DNA of 64,000 bases. Origin: Eledone cirrhosa. Its lineage: Eukaryota. The DNA lies in assembly GCA_964016885.1 (NCBI GenBank), contig OZ024749.1:6076001-6140000 (forward strand), read 5' to 3'. How positions within the stretch are numbered: position 1 is the first letter of the stretch; every line of letters begins with the position of its first letter. Shown one piece after another: positions 447-63,290 of this stretch. A program made the translations under genes and the position numbers. The notes beneath the pieces are model-generated. The model was given only the letters and a program-made list of their open reading frames with translations. It did no database searches and had not been told where the DNA came from.

Positions 447-586
447 TATTAAAATAAGATATTAAAGTTTAAGCAAAGAATTGCTGCTTTCACCCTTAAC
501 GGGATCTTCTGAAACAGTTTCAGAAGATCCCGTTAAGGGTGAAAGCAGCAATTATTTGCTTAAACTTTAATCTGTTATTTTAATAA
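447..586. mobile_element. Fold-back (palindromic) hammerhead element, family A, between (TA)n tracts; one-sided tail about 356-446
   Basis: Near-perfect inverted repeat centred at about 515/516; each arm carries a hammerhead-like fold; (TA)n at 296-355 and 591-617. Confidence 0.8.
516..566 (+). ncRNA. Type I hammerhead-like motif with U4A core variant
   Basis: agttt-CAGAAGA-tccc gttaa gggt-GAAA-gca..tgc-TT-aaact: stems I, II and III all pair; mirror copy on minus strand at 466-515. Confidence 0.6.
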
Positions 587-617
587 CTAAATATATATAT
601 ATATATATATATATATA

Positions 618-730
618 GTGCAAATTTGGACGGCAACAAAACAGAGAAGCAGACAAATAAAGGTTTGTTAGGTTCACGCTCTTGAGAGTGGGGGGGGACG
701 TTTCGGGCATAAGCCCTTCTCCAGGAGGAA
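618..730 (-). mobile_element. PLE pLTR-like fragment with degenerate minimal hammerhead (family B)
   Basis: Minus strand CTGGAGA-a-gggc ttat gccc-GAAA-cg-TC; homologous to 3283-3405. Confidence 0.6.
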
Positions 731-1548
731 ATAGGTTAGGAAGAGAGTTCCGAGGGTGTGTGGAGGAGGGGTGGAAATAAATTTAGAAATAAGGGGGAAG
801 GAGAACAAATAAAAATAAAAATAAATGTAAAAATAAATATAAGAATAAACAATAAAATGAACAAGTGGTGGAAGGGTCTGAGGTGTGTAAGGGTGGTGAC
901 GGGTGGAGTTAGGAGAGGGGGGTGCGGGGTCAAAGCGGGGAAGGCTGAAGGTGCTGTTTGTGTATGTGTGTAGGCGTACGTATGTGTGTGTGCATGTGTA
1001 TGTGAGAATTGGAGGAAGAACGAGGTTCCATGTTCAGGAAAAGGTGTGTGCGTTGGGTGGGGTGTAAGTCGGTGTGTGCGCATGCATGTGGAAGGAGAGG
1101 GGTCAGGGGGTGGGGAAGGGGCGTGTGGATTCCGGAGGTTGAGTGTGTATATGTGGGGATACGCACATGTGTGTTTGTGTTTATACGTGGTGTGGATGTA
1201 GGCGGCGTAGTGCGAAAAAAAAGGTGAGTGAATTTGTGGGTAAGTTCCTGAGGTATTTCCATCGAGAGTGCGAAGAGATGCTGGATATTTATCATGTTAT
1301 GGAGAGGATGCATATATATATATATACATACTTTGTATATCTTGCTCTACATATATTCATAAACATTCCTATTAGGATGTCATAACTTTCTATAAATTGT
1401 ACGTATTCTTATATAGGGTTTATTGTAATAAATCTTGAATATTTGAGCTGCATAACTTCTCCACACACAATTATTTTTGAAAACGAATTACTTTATACTA
1501 TATATATATATATATATATATATATATATATATATATATATATATATA

Positions 1549-1848
1549 AAATAAAGTTAAATAAAAATCAAATGTTTAAAATTTAGCTTCGTTTGTTACT
1601 GCTATATATATTTCAGTGACAGCCATCTTTGGCTGTGACCTCTTCAGGCAGTTTGAAGAGGTCACAGCCACAGATGGCTGTCACTGAAATATATATAGCA
1701 GTAATAAACGAAGCTAAATTTTAAACATTTGACTTTTTATTTCACTTTATTTTACGTTACTCCGGTGTAACCAAACCAACCTGCGCACTTCGTTGAGTGC
1801 TCCAGCCTGCATACTGAGGTGTTGGTGTACAACCAACATATACTCAAA
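1549..1848. mobile_element. Fold-back hammerhead element, family C (IR 1549-1753 plus tail 1754-1848)
   Basis: About 100-bp inverted arms; (TA)n on both sides; second copy at 57397-57802 in opposite orientation. Confidence 0.85.
1598..1652 (-). ncRNA. Type I minimal hammerhead ribozyme
   Basis: actgc-CTGAAGA-ggtcacagcc aaaga tggctgtcact-GAAA-tatata-TA-gcagt; 5-bp stem I, palindromic short stem III. Confidence 0.8.
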
Positions 1849-1898
1849 ATATATATATATATATATATATATATATATATATATATATATATATATAT

Positions 1899-2102
1899 AC
1901 GTTATTCCAGGTTGAATTGGAGGTAACCACAGTAAGTAAGGTACTCAATACATAGTAGAGTATAAAAGTTTTAATATAGATGAGATTCTACTGGACTAGA
2001 ACTGTTTCATTCTTTAGAAATCTTCAGAAATCCGAGTTTCCTGATGATTTCTAAAGAATGAAACAGTTCTAGTCCTGTAGAATATCATCTATATTAAAAC
2101 TT
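1899..2102. mobile_element. Fold-back hammerhead element, family D (tail about 1899-1965, IR about 1966-2102)
   Basis: Inverted arms around 2031-2036; (TA)n flanks; other copies at 63118-63290 and a fragment at 3105-3145. Confidence 0.85.
2038..2082 (+). ncRNA. Type I hammerhead ribozyme
   Basis: ttc-CTGATGA-t ttc taaa gaa t-GAAA-cag ttctagtc ctg-TA-gaa; GUA cleavage triplet. Confidence 0.75.
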
Positions 2103-59971: not shown

Positions 59972-60199
59972 ATCGTTTATGAATTTGTTTAGCAGGATTC
60001 TTTATCTGAAAACGTGTGTTGAAACCGATATTGTTCTACTTTGGGAGGGTCATGTTGCCAATAAGAAACACACGCACCAGTTGCTTTCACTTCAATTTAT
60101 TATAATAAATTTATAAATTTATTATAATAAATTGAAGTGAAAGCAACTGGTGCGTGTGTTTCTTATTGGCAACATGACCCTCCCAAAGTAGAACAATAT
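59972..60199. mobile_element. Fold-back element, family I: perfect 172-bp palindrome 60028-60199 plus tail
   Basis: Apex between 60113 and 60114; (TA)n flanks. Confidence 0.9.
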
Positions 60200-60353
60200 A
60201 TATATATATATATATATATATATGAAGGAGTTGGGACCCCGATTGCTGAGCTCCTGCCATTGCAACAGCTAGTTCCGAACACACACATATATATATACAG
60301 TCACACACACACACATATATATATACAGTCACACACACACACATATATATATA

Positions 60354-61243
60354 CAGGGTGAGGATGATAAATGTTTTCAAGATTACTGTCTATGAAAAAA
60401 TAACACAGTTGTTTAATTTTTTAAGATATATTTATCAAACTTGGGTCAGTTTGTCTTCATGACTTGTTCTTTCAATCTCACTCGATAAACCCATTGGCTT
60501 TGATGAAGGCCTCAAGGCGGCCTCGGAACCAGCTACAGGCCTTCATCACTGTCCCCCGACTTAAGCCCCTAAAGGCACTTGTGATCCTAGCCTTCAGATT
60601 GTCTTTCGTATTGCAGCTAGATCTGTTGGTGTCTCGTTCCACTGCGCCCCATGCAAAGAAGTTGAGGGGGTTGCAGTCAGGCGAGCTGGGAGGCCGGATG
60701 TCAGGTGAAGTGTGGTCGACAAAGTTCTCTGACAGCCAGGCTTGGGTCTTTCGGCTGGTATGGCAGGGCGCTGAGTCTTGCTGCTACACGTACGGCCTAC
60801 CTGCAGCTACCTGGTCGATCCAGGTCTTTACTACCTCGCTCAGAACGCGGATGTAGCCATCGGTGTTCAGCTTAAGACTTTCAGGGAAGAAGTGAGGTGG
60901 CATGACATCACCTTGACTGCTGACAACACCTAAGACCAATTTTGTCGCTGGAAACTTTGTCTGCATGACTCTGGGCACATCTTTGGATGAGACAGCGAGC
61001 CACCTGTTGTTCTAGGAGTTGATCTTCTGGTCCTTATCTGTCCTCCCGGCGCGGATTCCAAGAAACACTCCGTGTCTCTTCCACAAATTTGGAGGTTCAA
61101 AATTATTCATAATCAATTATTCTGAACATAAATAATGGAAATATAGTCACTGTTTTTATGAAGACAAGAGTGACAATGGAAGTAAAAAGAATTTGCATAA
61201 AATTAGCAGTTGAAAATTGCGAACAAATATCGTCCACACCCTG
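60354..61243 (-). mobile_element. Tc1/mariner DD37D (maT-type) transposon, internally deleted
   Basis: TIRs cagggtgaggatgata / tatcgtccacaccctg with TA TSD. Confidence 0.9.
60478..61031 (-). pseudogene. DD37D transposase catalytic domain remnant
   Basis: QQDSAPCH...PPSSPDCNPLNF: 37 residues between D2 and the D3 position (now N); two in-frame stops. Confidence 0.88.
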
Positions 61244-62454
61244 TATATATATACACATATATATGTGTGTACAAACATACACACCCTGATTCACAATCAA
61301 TAAGTTGATTTGCTTTCAAATATCTCATTTTCTATTATAATTCATAATATTATTTTTCTTGTTAATTTTTTTTCTTGTCTTGGAATTTTTAATTTTCTAT
61401 CATATCATTTCTTGTAGGAGAAGGCAAAAGAGAAGAGAGGGGAGTCCTACATGTTTACGATTCCGTGGAAATCTACCAAAGTTTACAGAAGAAAAGAACA
61501 AAGAGATGAGAAGGGAGAAGAGAGCAGAGGATATACTGAATGGTGCGGGAGAGCTGAATTTAATAAGATGAGAGGGGAAAATAGATCCCATGACTTTGAA
61601 AAGAAATATTCTATAATGTATTAATAAATCACCTGCTAATCTAATTAATGTAATATATGGTGGAGTGCTGGTTGGTAGCAGTTGGGTTAGGTATATGGCT
61701 TCCAGCCTTTACATATTCTTATTATTAGGCAGATATATCTATAGATATATATTAATCAATGTTTCTGGTTGCCATTGTTATTGTTGTTGGTTGTGTGTTG
61801 TTGGTGTTGGTTGTGTGTTGTGTGATTCTTTTTTTGTGTTCTTTTTTTTTTTATTAAATCAGCATTGATAAGGTCATTTTCTTCTAAATGATTATTAAAT
61901 TGGATATATATATATATACATATATATATATATATATATATATATATATATATATATATATATATGCACATATATATACACATGAACCCACACATACACA
62001 CACTCATATATATATATATATATATATATATATATATATATATTTATTAGTTATTGCTCGCACCAACCTGAGGTATCTGATTTTTAATGCGATGAAATAC
62101 CAATGATGGTTGGAAAATCACTGACGAAGGACTATTTTTATCATATATGTAACCCATGTGCAAACCACGCAGTATTCTTCTTTCTTCTCATGTTTTTTAT
62201 ATATATATATATATACATGCATATAATCGTCACAATTTAATGTTGCATTCTCCATGCTAGCATAGGTTAAACAAGTTGTTCCTTTGTAAGACAAGATCAG
62301 GTGATTGTGTCTTGCTCATACAGAAGTAATTTTGACTTGGTTTCTACGGCTGGATGCCCTTCTTAATGGCAACCTCATTTAGGGTGAGTACTGAGTGCTT
62401 ATTTTCATGTCACCTAGACAACCACTTTACAATGTGGGCTGTGTGCTTTCCAAT

Positions 62455-63090
62455 GCAGATGGGTTCTATAGAAGTGGTTGATAGCTTCTGGTACCTAGGT
62501 GATCAGAATAGCATGGGAGGGGGGGGGTCCGAGGCCATAGTATCTAGAATAAGGATGTGTTGGAAAAAATTTAGGTAGCTGCTTCCTCAGTTGACAAAGA
62601 AGGGTTTCTCCCTGCATACGAAAGGACGGTTATATGATGCCTGTGTGAGATGTGCGATGCTGCATGGTAGTGAGAGTAGGGCAGCAACTGCAGAGGATAT
62701 GCAATGGCTGGAGAGAAATGAAGCAAGCATGCTCCATTGTATGTGCAATGTCAATGTGCGTGAACGACCAAGCATAGACAAGTTGAGAAAGAAACTGAGT
62801 ATAAGAGGGATAAGTTGTGGTGTCCAGGAGAGAAGACTGAGATGATATGGACATCTGATGCACATGGAGGATGACCGCTGGGTAAAGAAGTGTCAATAAA
62901 TCCCAGTAGAAGGAAGACGCAGTAGAGGTAGACCACGAAAAACATGGGTGGAGGTGGTGAGATCTGACCTCAGATCGCTGAAACTCACGGAGGAGATAAC
63001 GAAGGACAGTGACAAGTGGAGAGATGCTGTGCTGAATAGGACCCGTCCCACCCTTGCAAGCAGGGAAAAGCAGACATAAAATGATGATGA
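62455..63090 (+). mobile_element. RTE LINE 3' fragment whose tail is shared with SINE family 1
   Basis: VDSFWYLGD, KGRLYDACVR, GRPRKTW; ends cccgtcccacccttgcaagcagggaaaagcagacataaaa(tga)n. Confidence 0.9.
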
Positions 63091-63117
63091 TACATATATA
63101 TATATATATATATATAT

Positions 63118-63290
63118 CATGTTTAATATAGAAAATGCTTCTAAAGGACTAGAACTGTTTCATTCAAAAGAAATCATCAGGAAACGCTTTCCTGATGACT
63201 TCTTTTGAATGAAACAGTGCTAGCGCTGTAGAAGCCATTTCTATATTAAACATGATGTTTACACTCTACTAATATATTGAGTACCTTACG
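63118..63290. mobile_element. Fold-back hammerhead element, family D (plus hammerhead 63186-63235)
   Basis: gctttc-CTGATGA-cttcttttgaat-GAAA-cag tgctagcg ctg-TA-gaagc and mirror copy; tail matches 1935-1961. Confidence 0.85.

Follow-up and report, generated by a model that had tools for sequence, protein, structure and literature searches.

Head-to-head ends of Penelope-like elements in the octopus Eledone cirrhosa meet at family-specific sites resembling capped transcription starts

What fixes the point at which inverted repeats bearing hammerhead-like motifs turn around in the genome of Eledone cirrhosa? The question is raised by a 64,000-nucleotide stretch, hereafter the window (assembly GCA_964016885.1, contig OZ024749.1, positions 6,076,001 to 6,140,000 of the forward strand; G000:C9:6076001-6140000 in our indexing), of a 3.0-Gb genome rich in (TA)n. 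An initial annotation of the window had listed six inversion points (515, 1652, 2035, 30095, 46297, and 63185) in five families, each within about 10 nt of a CUGANGA ribozyme core, and had proposed that reverse transcriptase (RT) stalls or switches template at the folded ribozyme of an uncleaved or circular RNA. All six inverted repeats are present. They are head-to-head pairs of pseudo-long terminal repeats (pLTRs), the paired, inverted ends of Penelope-like elements (PLEs), and they fall into five families, with the hairpins at 2035 and 63185 belonging to one of these (C). Sequence comparison makes it probable that the two arms of a pair meet at a sharp, family-specific site, likely the capped start of transcription, and that they derive from two complementary DNAs (cDNAs) that started at separate internal sites, extended as far as the 5' end of the RNA, and were then joined. 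The earlier observation is right in part and its proposed cause mostly wrong, the apex tracking a likely capped RNA start that coincides with stem I only in some families.

Apex and stop positions are numbered from C3 of the hammerhead core in each family (C3 = 0), and the family letters A to G are our own labels. Our sample of 1.864 Mb comprises 464 kb around and including the window (400 kb flanking) together with 14 arbitrarily placed 100-kb blocks; further material came from 60 search loci and from genome-wide pattern listings, whose tallies were counted by eye among the first 100 matches listed, ordered by position. Hairpins were detected by script, since repeat finder output was dominated by (TA)n, and this recovered the window hairpins at 515, 1652, 2035, 46297, and 63185; that at 30095, a short hairpin, was read directly. 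Target-site duplications were left unscored because insertion ends lie in (TA)n, and the 5' ends of solo copies, too noisy owing to shared tails and few references, were used for no claim.

Each family has its own sharp stop, at -5 in A, -6 in C, -13 in D, +45 in E, -70 in G, and ~-122 in B, with a further family, f1, stopping near -85. Among the listed matches of family A (26,478 in the genome), 66 extend past -41, 30 end at -11..+4, three at +11..+13, and one at -20, a near-core clustering far above chance (30/97 rows, vs 1/67 in the next 30 nt, p ~4e-19). Family C (9,623 and 24,680 matches) keeps its upstream part in 25/100 rows listed, and 16/21 of its head-to-head neighbours lie <=26 nt apart; in D (212 matches), 27 of 100 rows listed start at -17..-11. 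The 100 listed rows of E (36,239 matches) comprise 19 that run on and ~76 that end within -4..+11 of the A at +45, while those of G (3,893 matches) include 47/95 that run on and 47/95 that end within -4..+7 of the A at ~-70, with 1/48 in the next 36 nt. In B (5,969 matches), no more than three of the 100 copies listed have ends 3' of -32, and 6/18 listed pairs peak at -119..-126; among fetched insertions of this family, 8/28 start at -118..-125 and five at -78..-92.

At these stops the arms frequently carry a base that was not found in un-inverted copies. When arms of families A, C, E, and G were compared after removal of duplicates, G preceded 15/25 that start exactly at the stop A vs 13/81 at other starts (p 4e-5), and 12/17 vs 8/62 once bases that the partner arm could supply were removed (p 8e-6). 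In the genome, 1,985 copies of A start at the stop with a non-T before it; the first 100 listed have 63 G, 25 A, and 12 C, five or six of these rows representing longer copies with a point mutation. Three nucleotides downstream, at a control site, G accounts for 7/100 listed and a C from the palindrome dominates, with 78/100 control junctions using C microhomology, and the G:A ratio is 63:25 at the stop vs 7:15 at the control among matches listed (p 0.001). Likewise, 5,106 copies of E have G or A at the site, the first 100 listed dividing into 89 G and 11 A. Moreover, at about 12 A and 7 E junctions among the matches listed, both arms are intact to +1 and are separated by C, then zero to a few nt, then G. 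The window holds extra Gs at 46301 and, on both arms of one hairpin, at 2033/2034. The extra G of full-length L1 junctions has been attributed to the cap (PMC11702581). As a separate observation, junctions of family A at G(-8) carry a further preceding G in 3/3 cases, which suggests a second start site.

RNA polymerase II (Pol II) core promoters typically combine a TATA box ~30 nt upstream with a pyrimidine-pyrimidine-A initiator. A TATA-like box stands 30-31 nt upstream of the stop in families C, D, and E. In C, the motif TATA[A/T]ATA occurs in 25/25 listed rows that retain upstream sequence and, in those subfamilies whose spacing was measured by hand, precedes the stop by 30-33 nt (less in one deletion variant), with a CCAAT box farther upstream; D carries TATATAG at -31 together with TCATTC at its stop; and part of E has TATTTAAATA at -31. 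An RNA initiating at the E stop would be unable to form the ribozyme, because this TATA box lies in stem II. Against a background of 0.017 TATA-like starts per 7-nt window, occurrence in 3/7 families corresponds to p 1.6e-4, the stops having been chosen first and the motif set defined after C and E had been seen. By eye, YYA[G/T] is found at all seven stops (background 0.032 per site). Family f13 offers no upstream copy to read for TATA. A start site within the pLTR is known for Penelope of D. virilis and for Chlamys (PMC2377424, PMC8557442).

Two further observations concern individual junctions. On G000:C1, one family C junction is identically repeated at many places (8/100 rows listed), a truncated copy carried by another repeat. 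In families F and f10, a conserved AAGATGGCG, which we take to be a YY1-like motif, lies 45-60 nt 5' of the core (e.g. window 44380-44390), and several F junctions fall at -55..-80, just 5' of it.

At the outer ends of the hairpins, the arms of each family finish at one of two 3' positions, the short site (S) or the tail site (T). The sample contains 166 head-to-head pairs, of which 132 of the 151 scored join an S arm to a T arm; the scored set excludes eight small families (15/166 pairs), among them D, whose tail end had been set too short, and the tandem, microsatellite-rich family f0 and descriptor clusters 3, 15, 17, 18, 19, and 24 were excluded from the pair analysis altogether. The distance from S to the stop is 57-71 nt in A, C, and E, ~170 nt in D and G, and ~220 nt in B, and (TA)n directly adjoins 80/92 S-ended copies. 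The arms do not overlap in 40 of the S+T pairs, the S arm reaching further 5' in 39/40 of these (nine pairs with unmatched loops are excluded from the table of 5' reach). A DNA search of the genome with the family E tail returned no match. A chimera at L154 (~3500-3950; G000:C11:10033500-10033950), in which the promoter and core region of E are joined to an A tail, suggests template switching between families.

Taken together, the stops, the extra G, the promoter-like motifs, and the paired 3' ends suggest a four-step route. First, a Pol II promoter within the pLTR would start a linear, capped RNA, as the TATA/initiator-like motifs and the extra G indicate. Second, RT would prime from the two ends of a cleaved (TA)n target, at S and at T, 60-320 nt downstream of the start; the two 3' ends are seen in the genome, and priming at them would be consistent with PMC11167929. 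Third, both cDNAs would pass the uncut hammerhead (in E, just the 3' half of it) and reach what is presumably a cap, where an added C would become the G observed in the genome. Fourth, the cDNA 3' ends would be joined bluntly, via a short insert, or after trimming to a microhomology or palindrome, the joining being suggested by the junctions observed. Copies that retain the promoter and open reading frame (ORF) could come from priming in the pLTR far down a longer transcript. In A, C, and D, the apex would sit next to the core for the likely reason that transcription there starts on the 5' strand of stem I.

The window hairpins illustrate both the regularity and its departures. At 515, a family A arm (355..515, minus strand) that ends at the long T site and has its 5' end one base 3' of the family stop meets an S arm (516..589, plus) that starts exactly on the stop A (-5). 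The CUGANGA core claimed here is a hammerhead-like core, yet one that reads CAGAAGA (at 521; U4A) throughout the family. At 1652, a B arm ending at S (1547..1652, minus), with a canonical type I minimal hammerhead core at 1647, meets a T arm (1654..1850, plus) that begins within the core; this site is atypical of B because the main stop of the family lies at ~-122 and few copies end near the core. At 2035, a C arm ending at T (1900..2033, minus) starts at -5 and is preceded by a G (2033), while the S arm (2034..2101, plus; core 2041) has its extra G at 2034 followed by the stop A (-6) at 2035. The second C hairpin pairs a short-site arm (63118..63185, minus; core 63180) with a T arm (63186..63320, plus, end approximate; core 63192). 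In D, whose main family stop is -13, the S arm (30004..30095, minus) has ~70 nt deleted across a long stem II and is joined at an AGCT palindrome to the T arm (30096..30428, plus, end approximate; core 30100). In E, the S arm (46236..46292, minus) starts at +46, in loop II, and has no core; a 9-nt insert (46293..46301, plus), the last base of which is the extra G, separates it from a T arm (46302..46440, plus) that starts exactly on the stop A.

The proximity of apex and core thus stands for five of the six hairpins, whose apices lie 2-7 nt 5' of a hammerhead-like core (midpoints -4.5 at 515, -2.5 at 1652, -6.5 at 2035, ~-4 at 30095, and -5.5 at 63185), and the count of five families stands as well, but the core beside 46297 had been mis-called from the junction insert. 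In ten un-inverted E copies, the true core, [C/T]TGA[G/T]AA, lies 45 nt further 5' and comes with stems I-III and a GUC site, which places this apex inside loop II. Nor does the rule extend to hairpins of the window that had gone unlisted: a head-to-head B pair (57397..57803; apex ~57650) has arm starts at -22 and -78; the apex of a family G hairpin (10306..10553) at 10472 is ~57 nt 5' of the core at 10415 (minus), its plus arm being without a core; and that of a family F hairpin (59980..60200) at 60113 is ~111 nt 3' of the core. (A longer inverted repeat of another family, at 56550-58013, surrounds the B pair.) A wider check of apex positions in the sample gave 14/78 small-loop hairpins at -10..+16, from A, C, f22, f21, and B, and 11/78 at -10..+3; near-core apices were absent from E (0/34 hairpins) and f1 (0/7) in the sample and from B among the pairs listed (0/18), as also from G, whose stop is at -70. 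Clustering beside the core far exceeds chance within families A and C. The idea of an uncleaved template fared better, since the core-bearing arms reach 3' past the predicted cleavage site, in agreement with PMC11167929; an uncleaved template, or one whose nick RT crossed, is supported by this reach.

Among the alternatives, the one that survives best keeps the run-off and dispenses with the cap. The stop could be the 5' end of a processed, uncapped RNA, left by an exonuclease halted by structure or RT or by a splice-related event, and the G a general terminal addition by RT. At the stops of A, C, and E, the AG dinucleotides and tracts rich in U would fit such processing, as would the D. virilis intron that ends at helix I (PMC4209133), but the 30-31 nt TATA spacing in three families and the position of the E stop inside loop II would not. 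In addition, the arms start at the A of AG and not after AG, for which reason we rejected the stop as a 3' splice site, and no common upstream exon is joined there. We regard this explanation as unlikely.

Slightly less probable again is the explanation of the initial annotation, in which RT stalls or switches template at the folded hammerhead of an uncleaved or circular RNA. It accounts for the coincidence of the stop with the 5' base of the (extended) stem I in A, C, and D, for the D arm at 30095 that skips across stem II, and for secondary apices that fall in the loop II palindrome of A. The stops do not follow folding, however. When one natural copy per family was folded by minimum free energy, hammerhead topology appeared in B, D, E, and G and not in A or C, and B, which folds most cleanly, stops ~120 nt away from the core, as G, E, and f1 stop at their own distances. 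Neither a stall nor a circle gives a reason for G at one exact base or for TATA 30 nt upstream in three families, features that point to a linear capped RNA, and a circular template is disfavoured because a circle offers no end for run-off. An apex at the cleavage site itself was also rejected, there being no pile-up at that position in A or E.

We rate at the same low level a self-priming origin, in which fold-back gives rise to the second arm, whether on an antisense template or on the first cDNA, as proposed for Penelope elements of Adineta (PMC3846280). Palindromes do occur at the junctions (CATATG in B and G, AGCT in D, GATCTTCAGAAGATC in A), and both arms belong to the same subfamily in 23/23 typed E hairpins. 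Yet in 66/132 S+T pairs (39 without overlap) the S arm extends beyond the T arm in the 5' direction, so that neither arm can have been copied from the other; where both arms are intact, the 0-2 nt separating the added C from the added G are too few for a fold-back loop; and the added G sits on the sense 5' end. Copying of a master hairpin as such was rejected because the junctions vary. Least credible of all is the notion that junctions merely collapse onto palindromes or AT-rich microhomologies, or reflect a cDNA length fixed at ~60-70 nt, the RNA having no special end: the S-to-stop distances of A, C, and E, the CATATG at the B and G stops, and the C microhomology of the listed control junctions are in its favour, but it is already strained for A, C, and E, the S-to-stop distance differs between families (on which ground fixed length was rejected), similar motifs nearby are hardly used (as in the 1/48 of G), and the added G is left unexplained.

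Several points weigh against a capped start as the site where two cDNAs meet. One hairpin can contribute two rows to the genome-wide tallies. Part of the G signal could derive from the partner arm, in 17/63 cases for A and about half of those for E among the matches listed, and the count in family G is just 2/3. RT might add C at any template end, so that the extra G indicates run-off at an RNA end more firmly than it indicates a cap. A TATA box is absent upstream of the B and G stops, both of which fall at the CATATG palindrome; A has only a weak TATTTA, in one subfamily; and the TATA-like motif of E differs between subfamilies. No sharp stop was seen for F, f9, f10, or f12 in the small sample. 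Finally, the matching subfamilies of paired E arms fit a single source RNA and fit fold-back equally well, so that the two models are not separated by them.

The assignment of the hairpins to PLEs follows from their anatomy and from linked coding sequence. The pLTRs are accompanied by an inverted, 5'-truncated copy, bear a tail on one end, and contain a hammerhead motif, and a descriptor search found >20 hammerhead-motif families. At one family A locus (L159), an RT frame (1829-2848, YRDD) and a GIY-YIG frame (2824-3477, IVY.C...YIG) lie in two frames 5' of the pLTR; atlas look-alikes of these ORFs at 0.96 include RVT_1 in 17% of members and GIY-YIG in 23%, while Pfam and PDB searches of the PLE ORFs returned no match. 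The window contains a 5'-truncated remnant of a PLE-type ORF (31855..32907, minus), with a YVDD RT motif, linker cysteines, and the start of an endonuclease (VVY..C..C..YIG); its matches in the sample sit 5' of cores of f10 and F, at distances of 420-970 nt. An ORF is linked to A, F, and f10, which places these with the endonuclease-bearing (EN+) PLEs, while B, C, D, E, and G, with no ORF linked, are assigned to PLEs by shared anatomy. The CUGANGA...GAAA core is present in B, C, D, and G, and E carries U3/A8 or C3/A8; Rfam at its gathering threshold reported no hammerhead in the window. A miniature inverted-repeat or fold-back DNA transposon, which would have identical terminal inverted repeats around a constant interior, was rejected, as the outer ends differ (S vs T) and the junctions vary from copy to copy. 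Non-LTR retrozymes, defined by tandem hammerhead units and a circular RNA intermediate (bioRxiv 10.64898/2026.07.22.740005), were rejected because the hairpins are inverted pairs with a run-off end and not tandems.

Retrozyme-like arrays occur alongside the hairpins. At window 2180-2660 and at many sample loci, a tandem unit of ~465 nt (f0) has a hammerhead in each copy, and at L063 (G000:C9 ~6196400-6200100) tandem hammerhead-motif units of 311 nt, 99.9% alike and so recent, stand in an inverted arrangement. In a C copy (L212:1479-1562), contigs from runs X1 and X2 connect the short 3' end with ~-20..-10, giving ~75-nt tandem units with one hammerhead motif each, possibly a minimal retrozyme-like array or a microhomology duplication. 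Ends at L212 1495-1496 of contigs from four runs aligned to this copy were rejected as evidence of transcription start and not counted, since they partly reflect subfamily differences and contigs cannot show starts. Other features of the window include a 1141-codon RT frame of a non-LTR retrotransposon (36477-39902, plus; Pfam RVT_1 1e-22, zf-RVT), a tRNA-like match of 34.8 bits that is probably the head of a short interspersed nuclear element (44268-44325, minus), and a pyrimidine-rich tandem array of ~5.4 kb (22300-27760).

L1 elements prime at their poly(A) tail and at an internal site that varies, mostly yielding non-overlapping inversions, and retroviral minus-strand strong-stop DNA is primed near the RNA 5' end, the short cDNA running off at the cap. 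The PLE hairpins differ from the former in that both sites are fixed near the 5' end, the arms overlap, and both are able to carry the G, and from the latter in having no tRNA primer, strand transfer, or integrase and in being, on our reading, target-primed, with two cDNAs and a hairpin insertion. They would share with L1 twin priming the joining of two cDNAs from two target ends and the extra G at a capped 5' end (PMC11702581). In vitro, Poseidon PAc of Anolis likewise shows two internal RT starts downstream of the hammerhead, extension of both target strands, and unprocessed RNA as template, indeed as the dominant substrate (PMC11167929); its start sites are closer together than those here, and inverted junctions and cap copying are not treated in the text available.

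Among PLEs already in print, those of Adineta vaga (PMC3846280; overview PMC8557442) are the most similar, with head-to-head, inverted and 5'-truncated pLTRs, palindromic junctions, a tail on one arm, TATA/initiator-like motifs, and AT-rich targets. They differ in that the palindromes were read as antisense self-priming, where here a sharp junction has an added G on the sense arms, and in their tails of 30-40 nt, compared with 50-170 nt here (PMC3846280). The minimal type I hammerheads of PLEs (PMC4209133) resemble ours in their minimal cores, palindromic stem III, U3-A8 variant (as in E), and opposite-strand copies 100-700 bp apart; the ribozyme-made circular template proposed there does not suit these insertions, and the E RNA likely starts inside the ribozyme. 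With that circle and the antisense self-priming as the printed proposals found, the steps that create tandem and inverted PLE structures have been described as undefined (PMC8557442). Our literature search, which left most subscription papers outside its reach and covered others in part, found no paper linking the PLE junction to a start site, an added G, or twin priming. The elements are of a known kind and their inverted structure is known; the junction signature is a new, testable account of how inverted ends form.

More broadly, we lean, at somewhat better than even odds, toward a view in which PLE integration as a rule produces a pair of strong-stop-like cDNAs simultaneously, each primed at a fixed site a short way downstream of the pLTR promoter on an RNA that is capped and uncut, and in which these are joined cap to cap when neither lengthens, filling the genome with tens of thousands of hairpins per family, while the hammerhead acts mainly in read-through pLTR copies. 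Tens of thousands of natural junctions point to two cDNAs made on a sense RNA template that is linear, capped, and uncleaved, a concrete clue to the copying of these poorly understood elements. If this is true, hairpin junctions would preserve PLE start sites in the genome at single-base resolution, which would offer a reading of PLE promoters from genomes alone and would explain a dense class of genomic palindromes.

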